Source of the DNA: Eledone cirrhosa
Taxonomy: Eukaryota
NCBI GenBank assembly: GCA_964016885.1
Contig: OZ024744.1
Span: 42,532,001-42,596,000, forward strand
DNA: 64,000 bases
Direction of reading: 5' to 3'
Shown in pieces: positions 27,000 to 57,387 of this stretch. A program made the translations under genes and the position numbers. The notes under the pieces are model-generated. The model saw only the letters and a list, made by a program, of their open reading frames with translations. It made no database searches and was not told where the DNA came from. Every line of letters begins with the position of its first letter. The stretch's first letter is position 1.

Positions 27000-28854
27000 A
27001 CAAGGGGTAAAAAGTAGGCTGGAACACGTTTTGTGGGTGTTCCCGTCGTCCCTCTGTTTATCTTCCTTAACCTACAGGTTTATATACAGAGAAGGTCCAT
27101 TTACTCGGGCCATTTTTGCCACATTCACCCACCTTTCAGCGAATTTATGGGGTGTAGCACCTCTCTCTCCACTCTCACCGTCCTTCTGAAGTGATACTTA
27201 AAGAAGGGGATAAGTTGTTGCCCGGAGAGAAAGGTGTTTTCACTCAGTCCTTTTAACCTCGTCCACCATATTACCTCTTTCGCCATAGCCACCAGACAGA
27301 GGAAAACTGCCTCTCCTCCATTCTTAAATGAAGGCGGCGGGTGATCCTCACGATGAACTCGGTTGACAACTGGATGCGTCCCACACGTGAGAGCAGCTGT
27401 TCGACATAATTCCACAGGTCGGTCACCCCTGGGCACTGAACAATTGCATGCAGAATGGTTTTAATGTCCTGCTTGCATCTTGGACAGGTCCTTTTGGCAG
27501 GATCTCTGCCAGGGCGTCTGTGCCTGTAGATTTTGTCTCGAACTGGTAGAGCTTCTCGGTAACACTGCCAGGCCAGAGATCTTTGGAAGTTATCCATAGG
27601 CCCAGGACGGAAAGGCCTCCCGAACAGACTGGTCAGTCAGTTCGTCTTCCTCGATGCCTAGAGTTTCCCCGAGAATGCTGTCGCACTTATCCTCCACTAA
27701 TCCTCTATACAATGTCAAGGTGGAGTCTCCGCTGATTGCCGTTTCTGCTTGGTAGAGGGCTGTGAGCGCCTGAAGTGCCAGGCGTTTATTTTCGATCTTC
27801 GCTTGACCCAGGACTGCAGCTCTGTTAGTGAGACGAGTTGTGGAAGAGCTTGTCTCACAAACGACAGCCACACCGGTTAACCGGTCAGGAATACCTGGAG
27901 ATGGGGTAGCCTCAGTGAGTGTTTTCACATCATCAGCCATGGCATGCCCAGCCCTCCATTAGCAGGGTGTGGCAGCAGATGGATCTCCTCACCAAAGGAA
28001 CCTGTTTCTTCCAGAGGAACTTGAAGAGTAGGCGTTCCATTTTGGTGAGGTGTTCGCAGAGACAAGGCACAACTGTCAAGCGGTAGTAGATGATGGATGC
28101 TATGTAAGTGTTTGCCACCTCCGCTCGACGTTTCAAGGAGAGTTTGCACTCAGCCCACTTCTGGGTAAGTGCAAACACCTTTGCAGTGACCTCGTTCCAG
28201 TTCCTGTCCACCTGGGGTTCTGGACCAAACCAGACCCCGAGCAATTTCACTGGTCCTTCCGTCCAGCATCCAAATACGCTGTCAGAAGGCATGGGTTTGC
28301 CTCTCCATGTGCCGAGTTGCAAACCGACAGACTTGTTTCGGTTTAGTCTTGCTCCTGTCAATGTTTCATGTTCCTGTAATAAGTTGCCGATTACTCCGAT
28401 TTCTGAGGTTTTTGACACCATTACAGTTACGTCATCGGCATAGGCTGACGCTGCTTTCCACAGTCCTGGTTCAATCGGGTTGCCCTGCAACAGCTCCAAG
28501 TTCCTCAGTAATGGCTCAAGAGTCAGTACATACAGAATGTAGGAGAGAGGGCATCCATAAGGGATGGAATGCATGATTTGGAATGGCTCCAATAGGTAGC
28601 CATTCACCTTGACTGCCGAGCAGATGCTGGTGTGCATGGAAACAATCCAGCCTCTGAAGATGGGACCGAAGCCGGCCGCCTTGAGAACCGCTTCCAAGTA
28701 TTGATGATGGACCCTTTCCAATACCTTAGACTCATCTAAATTGATCAGAGCCCCACCGAAGCCAGGTTTACACCCTACCCCCTCTAAGATGTATCGCATG
28801 AGGTGGAGGTTGTCGTGTATGGACCTGGTCGGGATTGCACACATTTGCACTTCC
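27000..28854 (-). mobile_element. Tx1-like non-LTR retrotransposon, 5'-truncated decayed copy (E7): RT and C-terminal zinc finger, ORF2 stop at 27072
   Basis: ORF pieces carry IHDNLHL, GCPLS, YADDV and CPRC..HAIVQC and are homologous to the other copies. Several frameshifts; the 3' terminus is not clearly defined. Confidence 0.88.
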
Positions 28855-28856
28855 AA

Positions 28857-28963
28857 AGATATAGATAAATAGACAGTTCGACATACAGACAGACAGGAAG
28901 ACTGGCAGATAGATATGTGGATAGATAGATAGATAGATAGATGGGTAGATAGATAGATAGATA
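28857..28963. repeat. (GATA)n / degenerate GACA-GATA microsatellite between E7 and E6
   Basis: Directly visible. Confidence 0.93.
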
Positions 28964-29198
28964 TATTTCTTTATTAGCCACAAGGGCGCACAAGAAAAGG
29001 GGACAATACAAAGACATGCTGGGGATTTTACATACAATGGGGCAAAAAAATATAAAACAAACAATTACAACAATCGAAATCCCCGAAGGGGGGAGGCGTT
29101 ACAAATGGGTATTTTAATACCCCGTCGATAGAACAACCCTCAACTTCAGGAGGGTGTTGTGCAAGTGCTCCTTTCTTCCTTTTGTTCTCTTCTTCAAC

Positions 29199-32100
29199 CT
29201 ACAGGTTTATAAACAGAGAAGCCCCAATCCCTCGAGCCATTTTTTCCCCATTCACCCACCTTTCAGTAAATTTACTGGGGTGCAGTGCCTCTCTCTCCAC
29301 TCTGATTCTCCTTCTAAAGTGGTATCTAAAGAAGGGAATGAGTTATTGTCCGGGGAGAAAGGCATCTGTCCTCAGTCCTCTCAATCTCATCCACCATATA
29401 ACCTCTTTCACGATAGGCACTATACAGAGGAAAGAAGTTGGCGGTTTGATCCTTACTATGGACTCGGCAGTCAACTGGATTTGTCCCATACGCAACAGCA
29501 GTTGTTCCGCGTAGTTCCACGGGTCGGTTACGCCCGGGCAGTGTACAATTGCGTGCAGGACGGGTTCAATGTCCTGCGCGAATCTTGTACACGTCCTCTT
29601 GGAAGGATCCCTGCCGGGGCGTCTTTGCCTGTAGATCTTGTCACGAACTGGTAGAGCTCCTCGGAAGCACTGCCAGGCCAGGAACCTCTGGAGGTTTTCC
29701 ATGGGTCCCGGGCGGAGTGTCCTACCAAACAGACTGGTGAGTTCTTCGTCTTCGACGCCTAGAGTCGCTCCGAGCACCTCATCGCCCTTGTGACGTACTA
29801 GCCGTCTATAGAATGTCGGAGTGGAGTCTCCACTGATTGCCATGCCTGCTTGACAGAGGACTGTGATCGCCTGAGCGCATTCAATGTGCCAGAGGCCCAT
29901 CTTCTTCGGTCTTGGCTTGACTCAGGACTGCAGCTCCGTCAGCGAGACAAATTGCGGGAAGGCCTGTCTCACAAACGGTGCCCACACCGGTTAGGGGTCG
30001 GTGAGGAATACTTGTAGATGTCGTAGCCTCAGCACATGCTTGCACATCATCAGCCACGGCATTCCCAGCCTGAAGGGTGCTGACAGCAGACGGATCTCCT
30101 CACCAGTGGAACGTGCTTCTTCCAATGGAACTGGAAGAGCATGCGTTCCATCTTAGCGAGGTGTTCACGGGGACAAGGCACGACGGTCAAGCAGTAGTAG
30201 ATGGCGGACGCTATGAAAGTGTTCGCCACCTCCGCTCGACCTTTCAAGGATAGTTTGCACTCTGCCCATTTCTGGGTGAGCGCAAACACCTTGGTCATTC
30301 CAGTTTTTCTCCACCTGGAGGTCTGGACCGAACCAGACCTCGAGCAATTTCACCGGTCCGTCCATCCAGCGTCCGACGACGCTGTCGGACGGCATTGGTT
30401 TGCATCTCCACGTTCCGAGTTGCGAACCGACAGACTTGTCCGGGTTCAGTTTTACTCCTGTGAACCTTTCATATTCCTGCAGTAAGTTGCCGATCTCCCC
30501 GATTTCGGAGGCTTCCGACACCATTACTGTGACGTCATCGGCATAAGCAGACACCGCTTTCAGTAGTCTCAGTTCCAACGGAATGCCCTGCAACAGCTCT
30601 TATTTATGCAGTAGTGGCTCTAGAGTCAGTACGTACAGAATGGAGGAGAGAGGGCATACCAGTCGGATGGAACGCATGATTGCGAACGGCTCCGATAGGT
30701 AGCCGTTCACCTTGACCATCGAGCAGATGTTGGTGTGCATTGCAGTGATCCAGCCTCTAAAGACGGGTCCGAAACCGGCCGCCTTGAGAACCGCTTCCAA
30801 GTATCGATGGTCGACCCTATCGAACGCCTTAGACTGATCTAAATTGATCAGAGCCCCAACAAATCCGGGTTTATACCCCACCCTCTCTATGATGTATCGC
30901 ATGAGGTGGCGGTTGTCGTGTATGGACCTGGTCGGGATTGCACACGTTTGTGCTTTCCCTACCAGGTTCTCGACGACAAGCGCCAACCTCGTTGCCAACA
31001 CCTTGGCCAAAATCTTTAACTCTGTGTTGAGCAGAGTCATGGGCCTAAAGTTGCTTAGTTCGTCCCCTTTGTTTTTCGTCATTCCTGATCAGCGTTACCA
31101 CGCCCCTGCCTGCAGAACTGGGGAATTCTCCCGTTCTGCTGCCAGTTGCAGTAGACGGCCTTGAGGACGCCAGAGAACAAGTCCGGCATGCCTATGTATA
31201 ACTCATAGAGTAGACCATCTATACCGGGTGATTTGCGTTTCCTACAGCGGCCCAGAGCGTCCCATATCTCAGTGGCCCAAACAGTTGCACAAAGTACCGC
31301 TGAAAGACTGCGCACATCTGCTTGGGGTCAACTAGCACGCGTCCGTTTTGGTATTTCAAAGACCGAAACGTGGACTTGTTACCACTTTTCGCCTCTGCCA
31401 CTCGGGCCCAGCTAACAGCTTTCGCTCCCTCGTTTCCTAGAGCACGTGATTTACTTCTGACCACGCAGCCTTCGTATTTCGCGTCGAAGAACTGGTCCAG
31501 TGCCGTTCTTGTTGCTAGCACTCTAGCTACGTTGTCACTCCTAAGCGCTTCCTCTATCTTGGCTACTAGTTCCGTTTCTGTTTTGTTTCTCTCGACTCTA
31601 CTCTAATTGCTTTCTTGAGGGAGTACCACCATCTGTTGTTGACAATTGCTCCCGTCAATTGTTGCTTAACTAATCTACTTATCCGTTCATTGTAGGCTTT
31701 ACGTGTCGGTAGCGACACGTTCAGCTTCCAGTATTCGGGTCCTTGTCTATGTATTCTATCACGGTTGACTATGCAGAGGACTAGTTTGTGGTCTGAATAG
31801 GTAACCATGTGCATTTGTGGACAGCTTAACATCTTCTTGTCCCTCTCTCTAATGAAAAACCTATCTAAATACGATCTAGATGTCCCGCTGCGGTTTGCCC
31901 ACGTCCACTGTGGGGCAGTCGGGAAATCTAGTCGATATCTATCGGCCAGTTGGAATTGGCCGATTAGATTTTTGAGGCTGTTGCACCCTCCTCTACTGGG
32001 ACATGCTCCCACATAGTCCCATCGTGCATCTAGGATACCATTCCAGTCCCCCACTAAAAGTAAGGAGCGAGGCGTTCCCAGAAAAGAGTCTAGACGCTTA

Positions 32101-32474
32101 AAGAAGTCTGGCCGCGATTGCCATTGCCCGGTCGGGACATAAACGGCCACCAGTCTGAAGGCTCCACCTCCAATACTGTTCACGTCGAGGACTACCAGTC
32201 TACCCTCTGGGTCCAAGTGTACTTGCTGTACTTCGACGTCCAGGTTTTTCCGGAACATGACAGCCACTCCCCCTCCACCTCCTGGCTGACAGAGAGATGC
32301 GTAGATCTCAAAGTCATTGAAGATGGGGGTTAGTTGCTGCCTGTTGTGGATCCTGGACTTGGTGATGGCTATCATATCCATACCCTGTGACCTAAGGTCG
32401 TTTAAAAGTTGGCCCTGTTTCCAGGGCATCCCTAGACCACGCACATTCACGCTTCCAACTCGTAAACTAGCTAT
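29199..32474 (-). pseudogene. E6 ORF2: APE endonuclease, reverse transcriptase and C-terminal CCHC; frameshifted
   Basis: APE motifs NVRGL, VAVYVP, GDWN, SYLDR, SDH; RT motifs FRPMTLLN, LDQSKAFDRV, YADDV. Split over at least 7 ORF pieces. Confidence 0.92.
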
Positions 32475-33313
32475 GCTGGTGGAGAAGAGTTGGCGAAAAA
32501 GGACGAAAAGGTGCACTACCTTTTCGTTTCCTGGAGATCGGCTTGTTCAATCCCCATGTGGGTGCTGGAGGGGGTGTTGGGTGGGGTGGGGAAACCTTTT
32601 AACAGGACGCGGTTGATGGGTTTCTGGCAGGGGTTGCCGACATCCTGCGAAAATTTATTTTTCAGGTCACTATAGGTCTCCATAGAAACCCTTATAAGTT
32701 TAAGGTGTGGAGACGATTTTGCTTTAACGAAAGTTTTGCCCTCCGCCACCTTGGGGTTTTGGGAGATGACCTCCATCAAACTCTTGTTGTTTATGTTGAT
32801 GTATGCGTATTGTTGTTTGTGTTTTTTTGTGTTGTTATTGTTTGTTGTTCGTTCGGGAGTTTTCTTTTAATGGTGGGTGCTTGTGTTTGGGGTGGTGTTG
32901 GTGTTGGTTTTGCTGGTAGGGGGATATTTGACTGTGGTGTTGTTTGTGTTGTTGTTTGTGTCTGTGTGTTGGTGTTGGTGATTGAAGTTTTGTGGGTTTT
33001 GTGGTGTCTCTTTTTTTTGTTTTTTGGATTTCCGAGGCTCTTCTTCACTTAAAGAAGGAGAAGCAGCCTCATCTGTTAATGAATAATCATCGTCAGGAGT
33101 GTGTGGAAGGGGTATATTGTGTAGTGGTGGTGTTTCGGTGTGTGTGTGTGTGGTAGTGTTTGATGGAGTGGGATGGGTGGGCTGTGTTCTTCAGGGGTGT
33201 TGTCTGTGTTTTTTCTATTGCTGTTGGTTGAGTGGCTGTTTGTTTTGGTGTGTTTGCTTGTTTCGTGTGTTGTTGTTGTTGTGGTGGTGGTTGTTTTGGT
33301 GTTGGTAACAGTG

Positions 33314-33682
33314 TATAGCGAGAGTACTGGGTTGTATGAATGTAACAAAACGAGACATGGTTTGTGTGTATAATATTTAATTAACAATGGTAGATAGTAT
33401 ACTTGACATGTCAAAGATAGATGTTAGAATGAAACAAAGTTAGTAGTTACCGTTTTGATTGCCAGGCAATGGTGGCTGGCAGAGGACGCCTGGCTAAGGC
33501 CAGGCGCCTGTTGGCCAAATTAATGGCAGAGCCAAATGAGAGGCTCTTGACCTGGTGCCGAAAAGGCAAAGAGAGTTAGAAAGCTTAAAGTTGTTAGTTT
33601 TATAGGGCTCTGACCGGAAGTTGCAGAAAGGGTTCTACTTCCCGTCTAGATCCCAATCAAAACAAGGGAGACAACCGCTACA
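33314..33682 (-). repeat. 3' LTR (369 bp)
   Basis: No difference from 35125-35493 found by eye; contains TATAAAA and ATTAAA on the minus strand. Confidence 0.95.
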
Positions 33683-35091
33683 TAACCTCCCGCCAGAATT
33701 TTAGTGTATAAAAATCGAAATATAAAAATATAAAAATCGAAATATAAAAATCGAAATATAAAAATCGAAAATATGTAGCAAGTTGGCGAGAATGTTGTAA
33801 CAGGCATGAAAATTACGACAAAAGAATGTTTGGAAAAATCAATGATAGATATCAAGGTAGTCAACCGCTCTTGGCCAGAGAACGACTGGACATCCATCTA
33901 TCCATCACCCAAAGATACAATGTAATAAAGTAAAAGTAATAGAAGAGCTCAAAGTTCAAATGTACAAAATATAGTTCACAGGTGTGCAATCACATGACAG
34001 CAGGAAAGAAAGTGTGTTCCAGAGAATGAATGCAGGTGGTCTCTGTTCTGTGCTATATCGTGAAATTTCCAACCTCCGAATGGATTTTCTCACAGGGAGA
34101 GTGCTGCAAAAATAAATTCTCTGGCGTTCTGCTGGTTGTTGGTGAAGCTGTGTTGATGTATTGCTGCTGATGCTGTTGTCTCGCTGGGTGAGCGTATTCG
34201 GTGTTTAAATTCACAGTAAAAAAAAAAAATTTTTTTTTTTTTTAGAAAAAATGAGTTGCGCAAAGTGCTAGAAATAGCAGCCGAAGTTGATGGTCGATGT
34301 TGAGAATGCGTTGACCTGGAAGGGTCAAGAGGCCAGCGACCAGAGAAATAAGCATTCTTAATAAATGCGCGGTTATCAACGGTAAATTTACATTATAAAT
34401 TTATAAACCGGCAAATAGAAGAATATAGCTTAAGGCTGAAGAATCCTTGGCGAGAAATGTTATCTCTGGCGTGCGGCTATGTCTGTGTGTAGAGACATCT
34501 CTGTGAATCGAGAATTTGTGCTGCCTACACGTGCCAATACAAGGTTGAAAAAAATAATATTTCTAACGCGCGAGAAAATGATAGTGCAATTTTGAAAGTG
34601 AGAATGATGAAAAAGAAAGGCTTCACTCAGCATAATTATTGGTGTGAACTTTAGAAAAAAACAAAAAACTTGAACGATGAAGAAAACGATGAACAAAAAG
34701 GCAATGGTTCATCGAAAATAAATGTTCCTGTTGAAATGTTTTTTTAAAGAATATCAAATTTCTTTTTTTTTTTTTTGTGTTTTGAAAGAGTTCGTTGTAA
34801 GAAACGAGAAACATATATATATATCGTGAAATGTTGTTTTTTTTTTTTTTGTTTTGAAAGTGTTCGTTGTAAGAAACGAGAAACATATATATATATTGGT
34901 GAAATGCGACAGTTAATTGATGCGTGAGAGAAAAAGTCTGTCTGTGCGAATTCCACATGTGCGTGTGTGCGTGTCCTTGAGTATTTTCATAGTTTGTCGC
35001 TAAATTTGCTGTGTATTCGTAATGTTACTCACAAAACCAGATGTGCTATTTTTTTCTTTTTTGGGGGGGGTGACCACTTATAGCGATGAAC

Positions 35092-35123
35092 GGCTGCGTG
35101 TTCGTATCACGTCAGGGTTACCA
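35092..35123 (-). promoter_or_regulatory. Primer-binding site complementary to the tRNA-Trp 3' end (extended)
   Basis: TGGTAACCCTGACGTGAT lies 1 nt after the LTR, versus the canonical Trp PBS TGGTGACCCCGACGTGAT; the match continues through the T arm. Confidence 0.88.
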
Positions 35124-35124
35124 A

Positions 35125-35493
35125 TATAGCGAGAGTACTGGGTTGTATGAATGTAACAAAACGAGACATGGTTTGTGTGTATAATATTTAATTAACAATG
35201 GTAGATAGTATACTTGACATGTCAAAGATAGATGTTAGAATGAAACAAAGTTAGTAGTTACCGTTTTGATTGCCAGGCAATGGTGGCTGGCAGAGGACGC
35301 CTGGCTAAGGCCAGGCGCCTGTTGGCCAAATTAATGGCAGAGCCAAATGAGAGGCTCTTGACCTGGTGCCGAAAAGGCAAAGAGAGTTAGAAAGCTTAAA
35401 GTTGTTAGTTTTATAGGGCTCTGACCGGAAGTTGCAGAAAGGGTTCTACTTCCCGTCTAGATCCCAATCAAAACAAGGGAGACAACCGCTACA
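35125..35493 (-). repeat. 5' LTR (369 bp)
   Basis: Direct repeat of 33314-33682, followed by the PBS. Confidence 0.95.
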
Positions 35494-37132
35494 AGTGTTT
35501 TCTTTTGTATTGTTTTGGTTGAGCGTGTTTGTAAAGGGCAGGAGGCATTTAGGTGTGTGGTGCTATTGCAACAAAAGCAATGTGGTTTTCATCCCTCCAC
35601 CGAAATGTTTATGTGGCTGTTATTGTCCACCAGCACTTTTTCTGGTATTTTGGAGATTCTTTCCGGGCTCATTTACACCAGAATCTCCAAATTTGTACCA
35701 GACCACGTGTGTCTGGTTGACTTTTTGATGGAGAGAATGGTATTTTTTCTCTCCTCTAAAACTCCTGCCAATATCCACTAAATATTAATATTTGGTGGTA
35801 CGTTTGTAATTCTGATTTTTTGTGTCCTTTTTCCCAGGTATGTAGGGAAAAGGGTGTATTTTTTTGACAGTATTGGCGTCACTGAGTATCTGCGTGCAAA
35901 GGCCTCGCTTTTGAGGAGTACCGAAATACTCCCGTTCTGTTTTGGCCTTCTGCATAAAGTCAATGTTTGGCAATATCTCCTTCAAGGTTGCTCAGTTTCC
36001 CCTTGACATAGGAATTGTGGTCGTTTTGTTTCATTTGAAGCAGTTCTGAAAGTAATTGTCCTTCGAAATGTCTCCAGACGAATTTCTGGGGGAGTTTATT
36101 TGAAATCCACCGTTTTCACCGAAAGTGATAAACTCCTTTGCTTCAGAGGGCATCTGTTTCGCATTGGAGATATCGAGATCTTTGAATTCTTGTTTTTTGA
36201 TGACTGTTTGTGCAAAAGTTTTTTGGTGTTGTTGTTAATGTTGTTGTTGTGGTTGTCGGTTTTTCCGTTTGTAGTTGTGTCAATGGTTTTATTTTCTGTT
36301 GTTTTTGGTGTCTGTTGTACACTGTGTGGTTCGATCTTCTTTTTATTTTTGTTGTCCATATTGGCTTCCATGGTGACGCCAATACATGCGGAGTTAGAGG
36401 TAACGTTATTATTATTTGTGACTTTCTGTAAAAGTTATTTTTGAGGTGTTGTTGTTGTTGTTGTCGGTTTTTCCGTTTGTAGTTGCTTCTATTGTTTCAT
36501 TTTTTGTGGTTTTTGATGTCTGTTGTAAGCTGTGTGGTCCATCTTGTAAGTTGCATTTTTCGGCTTCTTGGCAAAACAAAACTTTGTTGTCACTATTTGT
36601 CTCCATAGTGACGCCTATGTCGGCAGAAGTTACGGTAACGTTACTCTCTGCATTTCTCTCTCTACGTCAGCGTTCACTAGCGTTCCTTCTACTAAGCTAG
36701 CCATTATCGATAACAAAAGTATAAAATTTTTGAAAAATTTTCAAATATAATTTTCGCCCCTGTGGGGCGAAAACTTATATTACAACTCAGCTGACAATTC
36801 AGCCTGAGTGTTAATCTATCAAACAATATAAATTTTCACACAATAAATTCTGTTTTTGTATAGAAACTTTTACAAAACTTACCGACAATCTAAGGCACGT
36901 CCGGTCGATAGATAGATTTCTTTATTTACCATAAAGGCATAAAAAGAAGGGACAAATACAAAGGGGGGAGTTTACATATAATCGAGTAAAAAGGGTGTAA
37001 AATGAAAATAATCGAAAATAACCTCAAAAGGGAGGGGACGTGATGGGGGTTGCACACACACCCGAAAAAGTGTGCAATCCTTTGCCCGGGGAGCACATGG
37101 AGAAGGTGCTCCCCTCTCCTTCACTTCTTTAC

Positions 37133-40100
37133 CTACAGGATGGTATACAGAGAAGGCCCATTTACACGAGCCATTCTCGCTACTATCACCCACCTTTCAT
37201 AAAACTGCCTGTGGCCAAGCACCTCTCTCTCCATTCTTATCCTTCTTCCGAAGTGATATCGGAAGAAGTAGACCAGACTATGGCCAGAGAGGAAGTTTCC
37301 TGACCTCAGACCTTTCAATCGTGTCCACCAAACAACCTCTTTCAACATGGCTATTACGCACAGAAAAACCGCCTTTGCTTCCTTTGTGAAGAGGGGAGGC
37401 GGTTTGATTGTCATCACGGACTCGGCGGTCAATTTAATCGGCGCCACCCGCGACAGCAGTCGTTCGGCGTAGCCCCACAGATCAGCCACGCCCGGACATT
37501 GCACCAATGCGTGCGCAACGGTTTCTTCGTGACGCACGCATCTAGGGCAAATCTTTTTTGAGGGATCCCTGCCCGGGCGCCCGTGTCTGTAGAGCCTCTC
37601 TCGAACGGGTAGAGCCCCCCCGGTAGCACTGCCAGGCCAATGACTTCTGGAAGTTGTCCATTGGTCCTGGGCCGAAAGTCCTACCGAACAGGCTGGCCAG
37701 TTCGTCTTCTTCCATGTCCAGCGACTCTCCAAGGGTGTCATCGCCCCTGCTAGCCACCAGCCCTCTATAGAATGATGAGGTGGATTCTCCACCGATGGCC
37801 TGGCCCGCTTGCCAGAGAGCCCTGAGCGCCTGAGCACACTCAGTGTGCCAGTCTCCCAGTTTTCCGGATCTTTGCTTGACCCAGGACTGTAGCTCGGTGA
37901 GCGAGACGAGTCTCGGAAAGGCTCGTTTCACGAACGGAGCCCACACCGGTTGACCAGTGAGGAATACCTGTAGGTGCCGTAGCCTTAATGCGTGCCTACG
38001 CATCATCAACCACGGCATCCCCAGCCCTCCTTTCGAAGGTTGTTGGCAGCAGATGGATCTTCTCACCATAGGAGGGCGCTTCTTCCAAAGAAATTGGAAG
38101 AGCATGCGTTCCATGGTGGTGAGTGTTTCCTTAGGGCAAGGCACGACAGTCAGGCGGTAGTAAGTGACGGACGCTATGTAAATGTTCGCCACCTCCGCCC
38201 GGCCTTTTAGGGACAGCTTACACTTGGCCCATTTCTGGGTTAGTGCAAACACCTTGTTCGTAACCTCGTTCCAGTTCTTTTCCACCTGGAGGTCCGGTCC
38301 AAACCAGACCCCAAGCAACTTTACCGGGCCCTCCGTCCAGTGTCCGACGACACCGTCAGGAGGCATCGGTCTGCCTCTCCACGTTCCGAGTTGCAGCCCG
38401 ATGGATTTTTTCCGGTTCAGTTTCGCTCCTGACAACCTTTCGTACTCCTCCAGTAAGGTACCGATCGCCTCGATCTCCGAGTCGGTCGATACCATTACTG
38501 TTACGTCATCGGCGTAGGCCGACAACGCTTTGCTCAATCCTGGTTCCAGGGGGATACCCTGCAACAACTCCAACTTCCTCAGTAAAGGCTCGAGAGTCAA
38601 TACGTACAGAAGGGAGGAGAGAGGGCACCCCTATCGAATGGATCGTGTGATTTCGAACGGCTTCGAAAGGTAGCCGTTCACCTTGATCCTAGAACAGATG
38701 TGGTTGCTATGTAGGGCAGTGATCCAGCCTCTGAAAACAGGACCGAACCCAGCCGCCGCTAGCACCGCATCCAGGTAACCATGGTCGACCCTATCGAAGG
38801 CCTTAGACTGATCCAAGTTGATCAGGGCCCCACCGAAGCCGGGTTTGTTGCCAACCCTCTCTATGATGTATCGCATGAGGTGGAGGTTATCGTGAATGGA
38901 CCTGGATGGGATAGCACATGTCTGCGCATCTCCCACCAGGCCACCCACGACAAGCGCCAACCTCTTTGCTAACACCTTGGCCAAAATCTTTAACTCTGTG
39001 TTTAGCAGGGTTATGGGCTGAAAATTATTTATACTATCCCCCTTGTTCTCGTCCTTCCTCACCAGCGTGACTACGCCCTTGGCTACAGAACACGGAATTC
39101 TCCCGTTCTGCTGCCAATTGCAGTAGACCGCTTCGAGGAGTTCGGAGAAGAAGACCGGCATTGCTAAATAAAGTTCGTAAGGTATACCATCGAGACCTGG
39201 AGATTTGCGTCTGCTGCATTGGCTCAGCGCATCTCCGATCTCATCAGCCGAGATTGGTCCCTCGCAGGACTCTGCCTCTTCGCTCGAGAGACGCGGCAGG
39301 CCGTGGAGGTATGGACCGAAATCCACGCCCCCGCCCGGACCCTCGCCTCCCCCGAACAATCGGGCAAAGTGCCTTTGAAAGGCCTCGCACATCTGCTTAG
39401 GCTCCCGGATCACCCGTCCATCTTCGTCTTGCAACGACCGGATGGTGGATCGATTTCCACTCTTAGCTTCTGTCACGCGGGCCCAGCCAACGGCTTTGGC
39501 CCCCTCATTACCTAGAGCACGTATTTTACTTCGAATGACGCAGCCTTCGTGCTTTGCATCGAAAAACTGGTTCAAGGCCGTCCTCGATGCCAGCACTCTG
39601 GCCACATCTTCGCTCTTGATTGCCTCTTCTAATTTACCTGTTAATTCTTTCTCGTTTCTATTCCTATCGGCAGCTAACATCTTGCTATAACTTATTGATT
39701 CTGTTCTAATCTCTCTTTTGAGAGATGCCCACCATCGGTTGTTGACGATTGCACCCGTCAACCTCTCCTTAACTAATCTGCTAATCCGGTTTCTGTAAGT
39801 CTCTTTTGCTGGTAAAGACAAATTAAGTTTCCAGTAACCGGGACCCTGTCTATGTGTTTTCTCGAGATTGACCACGCAGGTCACTAATTTGTGATCCGTG
39901 TAGCCAACCGTGCGCATTTCTGGACAGCTTAATATGTCCCTATCCTTACTTCTAACTAAGAATCTATCTAAGTACGATCTAGATTGACCACTGTGGTTTC
40001 TCCAAGTCCAGGTAGGCACAGTTGGAAAATCTAGTCGATATCTATCGACCAAGTTAAAACGGTCGAGTAACCCCTTGAGGCTGTTACACCCCCTCTATTA

Positions 40101-40570
40101 GGACATGCTCCTGCATAGTCCCAACGTGCATCCAGGATGTCATTCCAATCCCCCGCTAGAAACAGGGAACGCGACGTTCCCAGAAAAGTCTCCAAACGCT
40201 GGAAGAAGTCGGGCCGTTCAGCTCCGAAAGGGGAGTAGACGGCGACCAGTCTCAAGGCCGCACTTTCACTACTGCCAACGTCTAGCACCAACAAACGACC
40301 CTCCGGGTCCGAGTGCACAACCTGTACGGCAAGACCCAGGTGTTTTTGCAGCAGTACGACAACCCCACCCCCACCTCCAGGTTGACAGAGAGATGCATGC
40401 ACCTCAAAGTCATCGAAGGTGGGGGCCAGCTGCCGCACGACGCTGATTCGAGTCTCACAGATAACCATTACATTTATACTACATGACCTGAGGTCATTTA
40501 GAAGCTTTGCTTGCTTCCAAGTTGAGCCCAGGCCACGTGCATTCAAACATCCTACTCTTAACACATCCAT
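37133..40570 (-). pseudogene. E5 ORF2: APE endonuclease, reverse transcriptase and C-terminal zinc finger
   Basis: NARGL, CET, GDWN, SYLDR, TDH; LDQSKAFDRV, YADDV; CPRC..HALVQC. Broken by frameshifts near 40080 and 37620 and a stop at 38631. Confidence 0.94.
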
Positions 40571-40603
40571 GTGGGCGGCAGAGCCAAAGGAGAGTGTAGA
40601 GAC

Positions 40604-42480
40604 CTACCTTTCCGCTTCCCGGGGTTCGGGTTGCACGACTTCCATGGGGTCGGGGGTGTTGGGTGAAGGGGTGTCTTGTGGTGGTGTGGGGTCGTCAGTG
40701 TGTGGTGGGGTTGGGGTGTTTGGAGTTGTGTTGGGGAGGGGAAGGGGAGGGGGAAAGCTTTTTAGTAGGACGCGGTTTATGGGTTTGACAGAGGGTGGTC
40801 CTACGTCCTCCTTAAAATCCTTTTTTAGTTTTTGGTAGAGGTTCATTGGGATCTTTATTAATTTTAAATGTGGGTAGTTTTCTGACGAAACAAAGTTTAC
40901 ACCTTCGGTTTGTACCGAAGGATTATTGTATATGAGTTCATTTAATTTATTATTGTTTCTGTTGATGTAAGTATAGTGTAATGTCTTTTTTTCGGATGGT
41001 GTGAGTGTTTCGAAGAGGGGAGGGGCAGGTTTGGTTTTGTTTGTTGCTGGAGGGGTGTTTCCTGTTTTGTTGGATTGTGTTGAGATTTGGGTGGGGGTTG
41101 TTTGTCCTTGTGTGTTTTGCACATGTTTTCTTTTTTTCCTTTTAATCTGTCTGAAGGACTCCGTTTCTTCCTCCGAATTCGTTGGGTTATCTTCAGTGTT
41201 GGAGGGAAGAGGTATGTTTGCTGGTAATGTTTCCGTGTTGGTTTTCTTTGTGGGTGAGATGGATGTCACTATGTTAGACTGTGTTGTGTGTTGTGTCTGC
41301 GGTGGTTGTGTTGTTTTATTGAGTGAGAGGTTGGGTGGGCCTGTATTTTGTTTTGGGGTAATGTGTTGTGACTGTTTGTGTTGTGGTGGTGTTGTGGTTT
41401 TACTGAGGGACGGGTTGGGTGGGACTGAGTTTTGTTGTTTGTTTATCTGTTGTGGTGGTGGTGGTGGAGCTGGTGTTGGTAGCAGGGTTTTCTTTTTGTT
41501 GAGTTGGGGACAAGCGGCCTTCAGGTGCCCTCTGCCTGCACAGATATGGCAGGACGGCCTTCTCCCCTCCATGCTAATGTTTATATATCCGTGGTCCTCT
41601 AATAGGATTCTGTCGGGTATTTGGGCGATGCGTTCAGGCTTCATTTGCACTACCAGCTCTATACCTGTTCCACTGAACGCATTGCCTGTGGTTTTCCCAA
41701 TGGAAATCACGTTGTCATTCACTGGATCGATGAAGCCAGCTATGAGCCAGCAGTAGTCCACATCTGGCATCATTGCATCCAGTCATATGCGTTGAGTTCT
41801 TTTCCCCATATAAGATGGATAAAAGGTGAAATTTTTCGAACGAATCGGTGACAAAGCACATTTTTTTGCCGCCGATTCGTTCTTCATGATAATTGCTAGG
41901 CTTCCATACAGTCTGTCTTTTCTTATGAAAGTGGTTTCATTAAGTACTTCTGTGAGTACTGTTTTGATATCTGCTTGAGAAGGCTGTTCAGGTTTTTTTG
42001 TACTGTTGTTGATGGTCCGAAACTTGACCGTTCGGCTTTCAATGTCTTTCGTGAATTCTTGAGGCATTTTTACCGATAAAAAATACCATTCTCTCCTTCA
42101 CTTGTGTATTGTTTGGCGTCTGTGATCCTTCGTACCACATCTGAAATATTTTCCGCTATATAAGTCAAAGATTTCTTTGTTTTCTGTGCAAATGAAATCT
42201 TGTCGTCTGCTTTGCTTTCTGATATGGTGTTATTTTCAAATGTTATTTTTGTGTTTGTTGTGTCTTTGTTTGTGTTATTAGTATTGTCATGCAATTTTTC
42301 AAATTTTTTTTTTTCGTTGTTGGAATCCATGTCCAGATTTGTGTTTTCGTCATTTTTTTTCTCCGCAGATTCGTCTGTTTTTATTTTAATTTTTCCTTCC
42401 TTCTCTATGACGTTAGTTTGGAAGGAAGGGGGGACTAAAGCGTGCGAGCTTACAACTCTTACCGCTGTCCCCCCCACCAC
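40604..42480 (-). pseudogene. E5 ORF1: gag-like nucleic-acid-binding protein with a CCHC knuckle and a Pro/Thr/Gln-rich tail
   Basis: CHICAGRGHLKAAC (CX2CX4HX4C). One in-frame TGA at 41783 and a frame change near 42070; the start codon is uncertain. Confidence 0.88.
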
Positions 42481-42759
42481 TATTTTCGTTCGCTGCGTTT
42501 AACATTTCTGTTAGACGATTGAAATTTTTTACACAAAATTTTTTAAAACAGGTTTTTCACCTCTAGGAGGGGTAAAGATGAGCTGACCCACCGCCTGACA
42601 GTTCAGACGGAGGGTCAAGCTACACAATTGTATCAAAATTAAGTTTGAACTCACAAAATTTCCTCAATAAATTTGAACAAAACTTCTGTGCGAAGTGAAT
42701 GACATCCACACTCTAGAACAGACGACAGCTAGATTGTCCGGTCGATAGATAGATAGATA

Positions 42760-43139
42760 TATTTCTTTATTAGCCACAGGGGCACAAAAGAAGGGGACAA
42801 ATACAAAGGGGGAAGTTTACATACAATAAAAACGTGTAAAATGTTATCACAGATGGAATTTAAAAGTTAGTCGATTTTCCCCAATAGAGGGAGACAGTTT
42901 ATATGGGTAACACATACCCCCGAAAAAATGTGCAACCCTCATCTCCAGGAGTACGAAGAGCTTGTACTCCTTTCCTCTCCTCCTCCTTTTCCTCAATCTA
43001 CAGGCTGATATAGAGAGAAGGCCCATTCACTCGGGCCATTCTCGCCACTTTCACCCACCTTTCATAAAACTTGCTGCGGTACAGCACCTCTCTCTCCATC
43101 CTGATTCTTCTTCCAAAGTGGTATTTGAAAAAAAGAATC

Positions 43140-43140
<1 letters not shown>
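42760..43140 (-). mobile_element. Tx1-like 3' fragment (E4), ~380 bp, bounded by (GATA)n on both sides
   Basis: Encodes the ORF2 C-terminus LILFFKYHFGRRIRMEREVL...GPSLYISL* plus the 3' UTR. Confidence 0.93.
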
Positions 43141-43216
<76 letters not shown>

Positions 43217-43718
43217 TGTTTCTTTATTAGCCACAGGGGCACAAAAGAAGGGGACAAATACAAAGGGGGAAGTTTACAAACAATAAAAACGTGTAAAATG
43301 TTATCACAAATGCAATTTAAAAAGTTAGTCGATTTTCCCCAATAGGGGGAGACAGTTCATATGGGTAACACATACCCCCGAAAAAATGTGCAACCCTCAA
43401 CTCCAGGAGTACGAAGAGTTTGTACTCCTTTACTCTCCTCCTCCTTGTCCTCAACCTACAGGCTGATATAGAGAGAAGGCCCATTCACTCGGGCCATTCT
43501 CGCCACTTTCACCCACCTTTCATAAAACTTGCTGGGTTACAGCACCTCTCTCTCCATCCTGATTCTTCTTCCAAAGTGGTATTTGAAAAAAAGAATCAGT
43601 TGTTGGCCGGAGAGAAAGGTGTCTGACCTCAGCCCTTTCAACCTTGTCCACCATACAACCTCTTTCGCCATAGCTATCACACAAAGGAAAACCGCCTCCC
43701 CTTCGTTTTTGAAGGAGG
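43217..43718 (-). mobile_element. Tx1-like 3' fragment (E3), ~500 bp, bounded by (GATA)n
   Basis: Nearly identical to E4 over the shared part; extends to AVFLCVIAMAKEVVWW. Confidence 0.93.
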
Positions 43719-43752
43719 TAGATAAATAGATAGATAGATAGATAGATAGATA

Positions 43753-43798
43753 TATTTCTTTATTAGCCACAGGGGCACAAAAGAAGGGGACAAATACA
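43753..43798 (-). mobile_element. Tx1-like extreme 3' stub (E2), ~46 bp, bounded by (GATA)n
   Basis: TTTCTTTATTAGCCACAGGGGCACAAAAGAAGGGGACAAATACA is identical to the E3/E4 termini. Confidence 0.88.
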
Positions 43799-43820
43799 TA
43801 GATAGATAGATAGATAGATA

Positions 43821-45611
43821 TATTTCTTCTAGGGCATCAAAAGTGGGACAAGTACAAAGGGGAGAGTTTACACAAAAAGGCGTCCTCAATAAGGAGGAGG
43901 CAATAACAAAATATAAAAATAAAATAAGATATAACAAAAAATAAAATTTTTAACAAAATCCTCAATAGAGAGGAGGCGCCTTGGGGGGTCGCACACACCC
44001 CCGAAAAAAGTGTGCAACCCTTCTCCTCAGGAGCACAGAGAAGGGGTGCTCCCTTGGTCTTTCATCTTCCTCACCTATAGTCTGATGTAGAGTGAAGGCC
44101 CATTCACACGGGCCATTCTCGCCACTTTCACCCATCTTTCATAGAAACGGCTGGGGTGCAGCACCTCTCTCTCCATCCTGATCCTTCTTCCGAAATGATA
44201 TCGGAAGAAACGGACCAGTTGTTGGCCAGAGAGAAAGGTGCCCGACCTCAGTCCTTTCAGACGCGTCCACCATACAACCTCTTTCGCCATGGCTATTACG
44301 CACAGAAACACCGCCTCTGCTTCATCTTTGAAGGGGGGAGGCGGCTTGATCATTACAATAGACTCGGTGGTCAACCGGATCGGTCCCACCCTTGACAGCA
44401 GTTGTTCGACATAACCCCACAGATCGGCTACGCCCGAGCAGTGTACTAATGCGTGTGCAACGGTTTCCTCGTCGCACACGCATCTGGGACAGATCTTTTT
44501 GGCGGGGTCCCTACCCGGGCGCCCGTGTCTGTAGAGCCTTTCTCGAACGGGTAAAGCCCCTCGGTAGCACTGCCAGGCCAGGGACTTCTGGAAGTTGTCC
44601 ATAGGTCCCGGGCTGAATGTCCTACCGAACAGGCTGGCCAGTTCGTCCTCCTCCATGTCTAGGGCTTCTCCGAGGGCGTCGTGGCACCTGCTGCGTACCA
44701 GCCCTCTATAGAATGTTGCGGTGGAGTCTCCACTGATAACCGGATCCGCCTGCCAGAGGGCGGTGAGCGCCTGGGCACACTCAGTGTGCCAGGCGCCCAG
44801 TTTTCTCGGCCTTTGCTTGACCCAGGATTGCAGCTCGGTGAGTGAGACGAGTCTGGGAAAGGTTCGTCTCACAAACGGAGCCCACACCGGTTGTCCGGTG
44901 AGGAATACGTAGAGGTGCCGTAGCCTTAATGCGTGTTTACGCATCATTAGCCACGGCATCCCCAGCCCTCCTTTCGAAGGGTGTTGACAGCAGATGGATC
45001 TCCTCACCATAGGAGCCCGCCTCTTCCAAAGGAATTGGAAGAGCGCGCGCTCCATCTTGGTGAGGGTTTCCCTTGGGCAGGGCACTACGGTCAGGCGGTA
45101 GTAGATGACGGACGCTATGTAGGTGTTCGCCACCTCCGCCCGACCTTTCAGGGATAGTTTGCAACTGGCCCACTTCTGGGTCAGTGCAAACACCCTGTTC
45201 GTAACCTCCGCCCAGTTTTTCTCCACCTGGAGGTCCGGTCCGAACCAGACCCCGAGCAACTTCACCGGGCCCTCCGTCCAGCGTCCGACGACGCTATCGG
45301 AGGGCATCGGTCTGCCCCTCCACGTGCCGAGTTGCAAACCGATCGACTTGTCCCGGTTCAGCTTAGCCCCTGTGAACTTTTCGTACTCCTCCAGTAAGGT
45401 GCCGACCGCCTCGATTTCGGAGGCCGTCGACACCATTACTGTCACGTCATCGGCGTAGGCCGACACCGCTTTCCGCAATCCCGGTTCCAAAGGGATGCCC
45501 TGCAAGAACTCCAACTTCCGCAGTAGTGGCTCGAGAGTCAACACATACAGAAGGGAGGAGAGAGGGCACCCTTGTCGGATGGACCGCGCGATTTTGAACG
45601 GCTCCGAGAGG

Positions 45612-45614
<3 letters not shown>
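43821..45614 (-). mobile_element. Tx1-like 5'-truncated copy (E1), ~1.8 kb, with an uninterrupted ORF2 C-terminal half (stop at 44075)
   Basis: RQGCPLS, YADDV and CPRC..HALVHC lie in one open frame; the 5' junction runs straight into (GATA)n. Confidence 0.95.
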
Positions 45615-45654
<40 letters not shown>

Positions 45655-45810
45655 ACTGACAGACTGTCAGACAGGCAGGTAGGTAGATAGGTAGGTGGGA
45701 AGTGGGTTTGGAGTGGGTGGATGAATGAATAGACACAGATCTAGACAGACAGACAATGAGACAGACTGACTTAGAAATAGATATACTGAGTGACAGACAG
45801 GTACAAAGGT
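45612..45810. repeat. (GATA)n grading into degenerate GACA/GGTA tetranucleotide repeat
   Basis: Directly visible. Confidence 0.9.
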
Positions 45811-46505
45811 AAACTAAATAGATTATATGACTGATATATTGACTACTAGTACAATATGCACCTAACAAATTATCTGATTCCATCTAGTTCCATAAATGCA
45901 ATATTTCTTTTACCAAAATAGATATCTAGTTGACTACATTTTTTTTCTTTTTCTCTCTAGCTACCTGGCATATATCGACAATGGTATAGTTAATTCAGAT
46001 TCTAAAGATTTTCAAATATCTTACATATTTTGATGATATAATCAATAAAATGCAACTAAAATATTTTTACCATTTTTTTTTTAGGCATTTTTGAAAGTTT
46101 TTTTCTCAAATGTTTTCTGTTGTCTATCTTATTCTCTTCCTAAATAAAGAAATATATCTTATTCTCTTCCTAAATTTTGTTCTGTCGTTTTTGTTCTTTT
46201 TTTATTTATTTTGCTGTTTTTTTTTTGTCTTTTTTTCTCTTTTTTCTCATCCTTCTTTTTTCTTCCTTTCCATCCCTTGAATGTTAGACTGTGTGTATCT
46301 TGGTTCACAATAGTTACATCATATGCATGTGTGTTGTAAAGAGGCAACTAAGAGGGCTGGCACTAGGAAGGGCATTTGACTGTAAAACACTGCCTCAAAA
46401 AGGCTCCTGCAAGGCTAAGCTGTGTTTTTATTGGGAGGAGGAAAAATGGCCTTAATAGATTGTTGTAGTTGTTTATTATTGTTTCCACCCCTACATTATA
46501 ATATA

Positions 46506-53311: not shown

Positions 53312-56300
53312 TTTACGTCTGCTTTTCCCTGTGACAGGTCTTATTCAGCACAGCATCTCTCCACTTGTCACGGTCCTTCGTCATCTCCACCGTGAGCTTC
53401 AGTTATCTGAGGTCTGTTCTCACCACCTCCACCCATGTTTTTCGTGGTCTACCTCTACCACGTCTACCTTCAACTGGCATTTCCTGGCATTTCTTCACCC
53501 ATCGGTCATCCTCCATGTGCATCACATGCCCATACAACCTCAGTCTCCTCTCTTGCACACTACATTCTATCCCTCTCAGACACAGTTTCTCTCCCAACAT
53601 ATTGATGCTGGGTCGTTCACGCACATTGACATTGCACATCCAACAGAACATGCTTGCCTCATTTCTCTCCAACCATCGCATATCCTCTGCAGTTGCTGCC
53701 CATGTCTCACCTCCATGTAGCATCACGCTCCTCACACAGGCATCATGTAACTGGCCTTTCGTATGCAGGGAGAAACCCTTCTTCGTCAACAGAGGAAGCA
53801 GCTCCCTAAACTTCTTCCAACCCATCCTTATTCTAGATACTATGGCCTCGGAACACTCTCCTCCCATGCTAATCTGATCACCTAGGTACCGGAAGCTATC
53901 CACCACTTCTATAGCACCCGCCTGCATTTGAAAAATGTGTCTATCAATGCGACTTCTACTGTCTAATTTCCCTGTACATCTACTGCATACATATTTCTCC
54001 CTACCTGTTAGTTTGCCTGCTATCCCACTACATCTCTTGTGTACCCAGGATCTGCATTGTGTGCATTTTATAGAATTTATGCCAGTTCCTTTTCTGCATA
54101 TTGAACATGGCCATTTCCCTGGTGGAATCAGAGTTTTGTCCTCTTTTCTACTCATCAACACTTTTGGCTTAGCTAGGTTCACTCTCAGTCCTCTTGCTTC
54201 CAACTGCTGTTTCCATAGCCAGAATTTATTCTCTAGCTCCTCTACTGATTCTGCTATGAGAACCAGGTTGTCAGCATAGAGAACTTCCCATGGACAGCCA
54301 GTTATGGCTTGGAGGACTATAATGAACAAGAGTGGGCTGAGGACCAAACCTTGATGTACTCCTACTTGTATCTGGAATTCCTCACTAAACTCCATTCCTA
54401 CCCTGACTTTACTGACAGTACCTCTGTTCAAAGTTTGCACTGTCCTCACAAGCCATTCTTCAACACTTAGTTTCCTTAGGGACCACCAGATGACAGATCG
54501 GAGTACCCTATCAAAGGCCTTCTCTAGGTCAACGAAGGTTAAGTATAGTGGCTTATTCTTCTCTAAGAACCTCTCTTGTAATTGTCTCACCAAGAAGAGG
54601 GAATCTGTTGTACAAAACCGTGTCTTGATTACAAACTGATTACAAACTAACCCCCTCTCTAATTAGTTGTGCTAATATCCTTTCTGCCACTTTCATAAGC
54701 TGATCCATCAGTTTTATACCCCTATAATTGCTCCTCTCCAGAGCATCCCCTTTACCTTTGTAGCAATTTATGAGAATGCTGCTGCATCAGTCTTTAGGTA
54801 TGACACCACCATATATAGCTTGATTGATGATGCGCGCAACCATTTTAGTGCCTACGTCCCCTGATGCCTTCAGCATCTCAGCAACTATCCCCGACGGTCC
54901 AGCAGCCTTACCATTTTTCATTTCCTTAATCGCCTCTTGGACCCTATATTCGACAATCTCAATAGTTGGTCCCTCTGTTGGATCTACTGAGGGTAATTTC
55001 TCCCTCTTGCATTCGTTCTCCACATTCATCAGTCTCTCATAATGACATTTCCAGGCCTCCTTTTTCTGATCATTTGTGACACTAAGTACACCGGCATCAT
55101 TCCGGACACATTTATCTCCAACAACATGCTGATTTGCATTGACACACTGCTTTGCAATGTGGAACACCGCACGCCTCTGATCTTCCCATCACAGAACATT
55201 GGCAAACCTCCTACTCTCAGCCTCCCTGCGTGCTAAGTACACCTGACGTCTAGCTTCTCTCTTAGCGGCTGTATATCCTTCTCTACTCCTACCCTTTTTC
55301 CAAGCCTTCCATGCTAGTCTTTTGTCTCTAATGGCCTTATCTACTGTGCTGTTCCACCACCAGGTCACTCTCTGTCTGGTTGGAGCTCTGCTCCAGCCAC
55401 AAGTTTCACCAGTAGCCTGCAGTAAGTTGTCACATAAGAAATTCCAGTTATTATCTATGTCATACGTCTCTAAATCGTCTTCTTTTTCGTCATACTCATC
55501 TTGAAGGGCTTTCCTAAATTTGTATTTTAGTGAAAGGTCTTTTAACTTCCAGACCTTTCTTCTCCACACCTTCCTGTATGACTCATTCCATCTCTTGCTT
55601 ACTGAGATATCACTAATGACTAACCTATGCTGTGGGGTACATTCTTCTCCAGGATATGCCTTGGTATTTGACACTATCTGCCTGTCCTGCTGCCTAAGTA
55701 GTGCTCGCCTGATTTGTAGGTTATTAGGTGGTTTGCAGGTTTCTGGAAGTTAGTGTTGCAAATAGTCAGTGTACTTGCATCACAAAATTCAAGAAGTCTC
55801 ACTCCTTCTTCATTTCTTGAGCCGTAACTGTGCCCACCATGTACCCCAGGGTAACCATCCTGGAGCTGTCCAACATGACCATTCTAGTCCCCTGCTATTA
55901 TAATGATGTCTCCATCCTCTGTCATTGCGGTTGTTTGTAAAAGTTGCTCGTAAAAGCAGACTTTCTCTTCTTTGTCTAGGTCTGCTTGGGGAGCATAGGC
56001 AGAGATGATTGCAGTAGTCTCCTGCCTACAACAAATCTAAGCTTAATTATTTGATTTTTAACTCGAACTAACTCTATTGTCTTATTAATCCATCTCTCAG
56101 CCAGGAAAATGCCTACTCCCCCTAACCCATCATCCTTACCTACCCAGAAAAGCTTATAGCTAAGATGTTTGCCTGCGACTAATCTCGCAGAGGCACCTCT
56201 CCATCTCACCTCTTGCACACAGCACACACCCACACGCCTTCTCTCCAGCATCTCCGCTATTTCAGCAGATCTACCTGTGAGAGTGCCAACATTAAGTGTT

Positions 56301-56330
56301 GCAACTCTGAGATGCGACGTCTTCATATTT
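53277..56330 (-). mobile_element. RTE-clade LINE (RTE-A), near full-length single ORF, decayed, (GAT)n tail
   Basis: APE motifs TLNVGTLTG, VQEVRW, QHRLV; RT motifs FVDLEKAFDRV, GVHQG..LSPLLF, LYADNL, FRYLG; C-terminal RGRGRPRKTW. Frameshifts and stops. Confidence 0.93.
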
Positions 56331-56401
56331 TTGTTGTTGTTCCTATATACTTGTTGCTGTGCTTATAGTTGTTTTGGCATTGATACACTGGTTGATACAA
56401 G

Positions 56402-56522
56402 GGATTAATGTGAATCTTTTTGAATTTGATATATAAATTATAAGGATTAATGTGAATCTTTTTGAATTTGATACATAAATTATAGGGGATTAATGTGAGT
56501 CTTTTTGAATTTGATATATAAG
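56402..56522. repeat. ~42-44-bp tandem repeat, ~3 copies
   Basis: GGATTAATGTGAATCTTTTTGAATTTGATAYATAA starts at about 56402, 56444 and 56488. Confidence 0.85.
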
Positions 56523-56574
56523 TTTTGAGGTCCATCTTGTGTTGGTTATATTCCAGCATTAAGTGACTGAAGTG

Positions 56575-56760
56575 TCTTCTTCATCACCCACATATTCCTC
56601 AGAGGGTCGTGGGGGTAGAGTCCTCCAACTGATTTGGCTGGATCCCCAAGTGAGACTAGCCAAGCACATAGATGTTATCCAACCATCTTGCTCAGGGTCT
56701 ACCCCTAGGTCTCCTGCTGGTTTTGCTTATAAGATCTGTCCAGTGATTCTTTCCTGAAGT
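56575..56760 (-). mobile_element. 3' fragment of another RTE-like LINE
   Basis: My translation RRPRGRP*ARWLDNI..LG*SHLGI resembles RTE ORF C-termini. Confidence 0.5.
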
Positions 56761-56781
56761 GTGCAGGTGCAGAGCATAAAT

Positions 56782-56820
<39 letters not shown>

Positions 56821-56822
<2 letters not shown>

Positions 56823-57365: not shown

Positions 57366-57387
57366 AATATATATATATATATATATA

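Follow-up and report, generated by a model that had tools for sequence, protein, structure and literature searches.

Introduction

The closest described counterpart of the locus analyzed here is deferred second-strand transfer, which Hardy et al. (2025) reported for 44 defective HIV-1 proviruses carrying 7–54 nt of tRNA-Lys3 (PMC12657518). Position 58 of the tRNA is changed in 5 of the 44 proviruses; the change is written U58A, and we take it as the same change as the T58 described below. The read-through mechanism is thus already known from these proviruses (PMC12657518). The plus-strand strong stop at m1A58 was demonstrated for HIV by Fukuda et al. (2021), and the same source gives lentiviral complementarity to the primer up to position 55, so the maximum of 18 nt that the initial annotation of our locus assigned to primer-binding sites holds as the usual limit and not as a strict one (PMC8599865). 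Misincorporation opposite m1A is mixed and context-dependent (PMC4787781). LTRs of the CsRn1 type end in TGT...ATA or TGT...AAA (PMC2582038). For mouse elements, a review found no link between primer-site mismatches and tRNA modifications, and it describes Ty1 and Ty3 as not inheriting primer sequence (PMC7472051).

Here we describe an LTR element of Eledone cirrhosa in a 64,000-nt stretch of DNA, hereafter the window (assembly GCA_964016885.1, contig OZ024744.1, positions 42,532,001–42,596,000, forward strand), in which 32 nt of tRNA-Trp sequence stand beside the LTR. We consider it likely that these 32 nt are an over-copy of the primer that arose through read-through of a putative m1A58, probably once and probably with a wrong base inserted, followed by a late jump to the end of the minus strand. 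What is new compared with the known mechanism is that an over-copy now serves as working primer site in a germline family that has amplified; the open-access literature yielded no report of such a family arising from primer read-through.

Results

The LTR element and its family

A single nucleotide separates the tRNA-Trp copy from the end of the 5´ LTR (Table 1). The window element contains no coding frame and no Gag, and the one internal frame that was tested has no Pfam match. It has a tRNA-Trp primer site adjoining the 5´ LTR and LTR ends of the form TGT...ATA, which are CsRn1 traits, and a 4-bp target-site duplication is clear in seven of the eight family copies checked, including the window copy. 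About 480 bp of the interior recur, at ~90% identity, in the 3´ part of a family with coding capacity (L258 and related loci), in which the Gag motif CX2HX9CX3C is present. Together, the Trp site, the 4-bp duplication, the LTR ends and the Gag of the partner fit a young non-coding derivative of CsRn1-like Ty3/Gypsy elements, with the coding L258 family as the likely source (helper) of its enzymes. Chimeras exist between the two families, which suggests that both are packaged in shared particles. In L301, L306–L308, L311 and L319, a partner LTR with its 18-nt site is joined at a 3-nt microhomology to an inverted 32-nt unit and a window-family LTR end, and L316 carries a partner LTR on the interior of the window family. 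The family is large: a pattern with a base other than A at position 58 has 514 exact matches in the genome, and a few of the first 100 listed lie outside the family.

In the window, positions 1–25000 hold a 26-bp satellite array with strong strand skew, and positions 27000–46000 hold several related broken LINEs (endonuclease and reverse transcriptase matches, tetranucleotide tails) stacked on the minus strand, with the LTR element upstream of one of them. At 53400–59900, two frames in inverted orientation match PHD fingers, and one of them lies next to a reverse transcriptase match.

Table 1. Features of the LTR element, in positions of the window.
Feature	Position	Strand	Evidence or remark
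LTR element, 2180 bp	33314–35493	minus	two LTRs identical over 369 bp
5´ LTR, 369 bp, ends TGT...ATA	35125–35493	minus	identical to the other LTR
tRNA-Trp copy, 32 nt, positions 76 to 45	35092–35123	minus	alignment to host tRNA-Trp(CCA) genes
Working primer-binding site, first 18 nt of the tRNA copy	35106–35123	minus	tRNA bases regained at 67/72 by scattered young copies
tRNA position 72, T, true mismatch	35119	plus	C72 in older insert-bearing copies
tRNA position 67, A	35114	plus	same base in host gene L031
tRNA position 58, T for A	35105	plus	T in 39/39 insert-bearing copies picked by internal sequence
Junction filler, 5 nt	35087–35091	minus	missing in insert-free relatives
Second copy of the final 10 nt of the LTR end	35077–35086	minus	same sequence as the LTR end of old copies L074/L111
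Relic primer site, 11 nt, now degenerate	35066–35076	minus	perfect and sole site in 19/30 relatives
Internal segment matching, in two blocks at ~90% identity, the 3´ region of the coding CsRn1-like L258 family	33951–34433	minus	
Polypurine tract	33683–33694	minus	read directly in the sequence
3´ LTR	33314–33682	minus	identical to the 5´ LTR
Target-site duplication, 4 bp	left 33310–33313, right 35494–35497		flanks the element

The 32-nt match to host tRNA-Trp

Positions 45–76 of host tRNA-Trp(CCA) agree with the stretch at 35092–35123 in 29 of 32 nt when the commonest G57 gene plus CCA is used, and in 30 of 32 nt against a host gene with A67 (L031), which leaves mismatches at 58 and 72. The initial annotation had proposed a 32-nt tRNA-Trp primer match with T at position 58 (35105); alignment to the host genes confirms it, and the match indeed passes the 18-nt limit, extending 13 nt beyond position 58. 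The older primer site with the duplicated LTR end at 35066–35086 and the presence of the stretch in hundreds of copies had escaped that annotation. The chance of a 29/32 match anywhere in the window is ~3e-9, and that of a 13/14 in-register match past the 18-nt site is ~3e-7. The 3.0-Gb genome contains 58 exact pattern matches to tRNA-Trp(CCA) genes, confirmed by ARAGORN, which finds no tRNA gene within the 64-kb window; the stretch is therefore not a tRNA gene. The A/G polymorphism at position 67 is also found in the coding partner, and T72 was acquired after the insertion, as older insert-bearing copies have C72.

Insertion next to an older primer site

When 30 family copies are picked by internal sequence alone, 19 consist at this point of the LTR end, an 11-nt site and an A-tract, 10 carry the insert and 1 (L127) carries an independent insert. 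In insert-bearing copies, the LTR end is followed by tRNA positions 76 to 45, then by the 5-nt filler, a repeated 10-nt LTR end and finally the old site. The insert of L127 comprises tRNA positions 51–76 of the A57 gene type with A58 kept, and each of the two inserts is accompanied by a duplication of the old primer site together with 10 nt of LTR end. The oldest insert-bearing copies match the tRNA over the 32 nt except at position 58. The 32 nt are an insertion, and the ancestral state is the 11-nt primer site, a polarity that rests on anatomy and not on a rooted tree. The tree (80 rows, primer region excluded) has unsettled bootstrap values and does not root the insert-bearing versus insert-free state; its rows L061–L080 were chosen for variant sites, so that no frequencies are drawn from them. 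Old insert-free and insert-bearing copies intermix in this tree (6–7 changes), and L425 shows a precise loss of the insert, which indicates that some insert-free copies are revertants. Among young copies with identical LTRs, 29 of 30 are insert-bearing. Tandem doubling of the 46–47-nt insert unit is observed in L061, L073 and L115.

Position 58 is fixed while positions 67 and 72 revert

With a query that leaves out position 58, this position is T in 10/10 and 29/29 insert-bearing copies, and none of these 39 copies combines the focal junction with A58. C58 is rare (three family rows among the first 100 listed of the 514 matches). Positions 67 and 72 behave differently: copies with the tRNA-perfect G67/C72 are scattered through the young clade of the tree as sisters of A67/T72 copies, and among independent raw reads, 17 of 91 have G for A at 35114 and 18 of 97 have C for T at 35119. 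G67 and/or C72 occur in 4 of 29 insert-bearing copies, one of them at the locus of the query itself. Reversion at 67/72 is thus well below the 50% that is expected for retroviral primer sites. A Fisher test of joint G67/C72 over the first 100 listed rows (12, 1, 10 and 76; one non-family row dropped) gives p ~1e-8 for a set that mixes old ancestral copies with reversions, and the tree is relied on instead. Since 67 and 72 revert and T58 does not, the outer site is the working one, sometimes refreshed from the primer, with refreshing that ends before position 58. The coding partner has the same boundary, as its junctions break exactly at 59. In 60 loci picked by integrase (drawn from 150 listed and chosen for long frames), nine have an 18-nt Trp site ending at 59 and one has a 28-nt match.

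Independent over-long copies of tRNA-Trp

Counting the focal one, 28 independent over-copies with different junctions were collected across the genome (29 loci, one dropped as belonging to the same family), using queries biased in different ways (C58/C37, A58, T58 and neutral) and samples of at most 40 matches per search. Position 58 is changed in 13 of the 28 (T in 8, C in 4, G in 1; 46%, binomial p 4e-14), position 37 in 3 of 10 (binomial p 2e-3) and position 26 in the single over-copy that covers it, compared with 21 of 846 at all other positions (2.5% per site). Positions 58, 37 and 26 are the usual sites of tRNA methylation on the pairing face. Because the changes at 58 are in excess and comprise three kinds of wrong base, we infer that the template tRNA carried m1A58. 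The other 15 over-copies keep A58, so read-through also happens without error. In the neutral sample, obtained with a query ending at 59, 7 of 30 junctions extend further, and 6 of these 7 are changed at 58.

The 5´ ends of the over-copies are also not spread evenly: nine lie at 27–30 and eight at 35–39 (one of these at 38), and one over-copy, with the change at 26, reaches position 5 near the 5´ end of the tRNA. The usual blocks to copying are at positions 9, 26 and 37; 10 of the 28 ends (at 5 or 27–30) and the one at 38 adjoin them. Some over-copies reside in coding elements (L185, L187 and L188). When the longest over-copy served as query, most matches were genes.

Several loci of this collection show features of their own. 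L063:3560-4126 (C1 near 273133300) is a fold-back palindrome of another LTR with arms 89% alike, a 4-bp target duplication and a loop of tRNA-Trp positions 28–76 that is changed at 37 and 58; it looks like an over-long plus strand that primed itself and then integrated. Other long palindromes are found at L088, L099 and L110. Six over-copies (L086, L145, L154, L156, L159 and L161) end at 35–37 with 58 and 37 unchanged, five of them from the A58 query, where bias is possible; they may have been primed by a 3´ half of the tRNA or by a tRNA without modifications. G49A is found in 4 of the 22 over-copies that cover the site (L083, L086, L108 and L400) and in 1 of 73 gene copies; it is not a CpG change.

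A coding group with a block complementary to tRNA positions 56–44

A separate coding group comprises 22 of the 60 loci L211–L270. In these (L229:1095-1140 and 21 more), a 14-nt Trp site is followed by a block in which 11–12 of 13 nt are complementary to tRNA positions 56–44, and 15 of the 22 also have a 7-nt block complementary to positions 36–30 in the anticodon region, which may be chance. The longer block is probably an older, eroded over-copy in an active family.

Discussion

Alternative explanations

Two alternatives retain the over-copying and dispense with the copying error at m1A58. The primer could have been a variant tRNA-Trp with U58, which has no methyl block and from which T58 would be copied faithfully. 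Such genes exist: among 73 well-aligned gene copies, which represent both C4 clusters and a few single genes, two have T58, one with G57 like the element (C4:277429789) and one with A57 (C4:353469717), which is the base in all seven non-focal T58 events, and unblocked tRNAs would be enriched among read-through products. However, both genes carry further damaging changes (G24A in the A57 gene; C32A, G37T and G49A in the G57 gene, where the element has G49), and two in 73 is the background rate of 2.5% per site. A57 is also the majority type of gene (52/73), C58 (four events) and G58 (one event) match none of the 73 copies, and the excess at 58 persists without the seven A57/T58 events (6/21, p ~1e-5 against background). 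We therefore regard a variant primer as quite unlikely. The initial annotation had named a host gene with T58 as a finding that would refute read-through, and formally such genes are present; yet they lower the read-through claim without removing it, since both are damaged, A58 is found in all 39 copies that are near-intact, and the element sequence is identical to neither gene. The second alternative assumes error-free copying of a tRNA that lacked the methyl group, with an ordinary mutation turning A58 into T in the founder before it amplified; it draws on the 15 of 28 over-copies that keep A58. It is very unlikely, because in the oldest insert-bearing copies 58 is the only difference over 32 nt and because 46% at 58 stands against a background of 2.5% per site.

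The remaining alternatives explain the stretch by its use or by another route of insertion. The extra 14 nt may owe their retention to extended pairing of the opened tRNA over the full 32 nt, as in Ty1, Ty3 or gypsy, to the advantage of the insert-bearing lineage. The predicted duplex is -72 to -76 kcal/mol with the insert versus -50 kcal/mol (duplexfold, long window, no control), no fixed change separates old from young lineages in 45–58 while the relic site and 67/72 have changed, young copies nearly all bear the insert, and the coding group keeps its block complementary to 44–56. On the other hand, zero changes in 14 nt at 9% internal divergence is not significant (p ~0.25), the insert can be lost precisely, as in L425, and the coding group shares its whole leader, so that its block is explained by descent. 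We consider such selection unlikely, and extended primer pairing, which the initial annotation had offered as an alternative, is not the origin of the stretch: the duplication and T58 are left unexplained by it, so pairing could only be a later use. That the reverse transcriptase of this lineage habitually reads through 58 and recopies 32 nt in each round is most improbable, even with over-copies as frequent as 7 of 30 among the surviving junctions of a related LTR family. It predicts a mixture of A, T, C and G at 58 and ragged ends, whereas T in 39/39 and one fixed junction are seen, T58 never reverts while 67/72 do, and the sites of the partner end at 59. Of the earlier claim, the fossil of primer copying past 58, with T58 most likely a copying error, thus stands, while routine copying through 58 by the lineage is not supported. 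A LINE-inserted 3´ fragment of the tRNA, with the flanking 8–10-nt repeat as target-site duplication, would suit the short direct repeat and a region rich in LINEs; it is equally improbable, as a tail is missing, the repeat extends over the LTR end and the old primer site, the CCA end coincides exactly with the primer position, and another insert of independent origin is arranged in the same way.

Proposed course of the over-copying

A single read-through of the primer would have proceeded as follows. During plus-strand synthesis, the reverse transcriptase, presumably supplied with the other enzymes by the coding CsRn1-like family, would pass m1A58 and probably insert a wrong base. The resulting over-long plus strand would be unable to pair with the short 11-nt site and would instead be joined to a minus-strand end still holding ~10 nt of LTR, which would account for the duplicated 10 nt of the LTR end, though not for the 5-nt filler. 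What is observed is that the two LTRs, the polypurine tract and a complete 18-nt site have been retained and that the copy has amplified to hundreds. The new outer site is refreshed from the tRNA, and the inner site has decayed. Later rounds would stop normally at 59, so that T58 and positions 45–57 would be inherited as ordinary template.

Implications

Read-through has been described as a dead end; here its product would have kept all signals and founded a large, recently active subfamily, which would mean that a copying error can create a new primer site. Independent over-copies would act as natural tRNA sequencing inside germline retrotransposon particles, with error and stop positions readable from an assembly alone in animals without tRNA modification data. 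Because insert-free, insert-bearing, tandem and revertant copies coexist, the family offers a test of selection on extra primer pairing. More tentatively, and with a probability that we set low, over-copying could be a route to extended tRNA-pairing sites, in which full pairing of the 32 nt by the opened tRNA contributed to the displacement of the 11-nt ancestor by insert-bearing copies, and the coding group is an older, eroded case. If so, assemblies would hold a fossil map of germline tRNA methylation (58, 37, 26 and 9) and would record stages in the origin of multipartite primer sites.

Comparison with known systems

The window element shares with the CsRn1 clade (PwRn1/AgCR) the tRNA-Trp site, the 4-bp duplication and the TGT...ATA ends, and its partner has the CX2HX9CX3C Gag; the primer sites quoted for CsRn1 elements are 11–12 nt long, and the window element, unlike them, has no coding frame (PMC2582038). 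Helenus TRIMs are likewise non-autonomous LTR elements with tRNA-derived sequence and, in animals, 4-bp duplications; in them the tRNA sequence is located within the LTR, where it forms a Pol III promoter, whereas here it lies outside the LTR, antisense and CCA-ended, as a copy of the primer itself (PMC10886601). Assignment to Helenus/TRIMp3 was rejected, as the tRNA part is outside both LTRs and the length of 2180 bp compares with a limit of under 1 kb for these elements (PMC10886601).

Like Ty1, Ty3 and Drosophila gypsy, the element is complementary to the T-arm region of its primer outside the 3´ end; the extra sites of those elements are described as separate boxes with tested pairing, whereas here a single in-register copy has a datable origin and predicted pairing (PMC1635307). 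As in mouse ETn/MusD/IAP, the commonest primer site has two mismatches and perfect sites are scattered in the tree; the window Gypsy family seems to inherit primer sequence, with refreshing at a low rate, unlike Ty1 and Ty3 as portrayed in the same review (PMC7472051).

The 18-nt limit in the coding partner and the many junctions ending at 59 agree with the m1A58 stop (PMC8599865). According to that work, products of read-through cannot complete synthesis and integrate, whereas the window family would descend from one that did (PMC8599865). The nearest likeness is to deferred transfer in HIV, in which the LTR end and the primer site are followed by further primer-tRNA sequence and then a jump (PMC12657518). 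The corresponding traits are present here: in-register tRNA sequence starts at the LTR end and runs past 59, a junction to element sequence follows, and an insert-free state exists. Compared with the HIV case, changes at 37 and 26 are seen in addition to those at 58 (PMC12657518). The HIV products are somatic, deleted and defective, whereas here the jump would have duplicated sequence, kept the cis signals, entered the germline and been amplified (PMC12657518).
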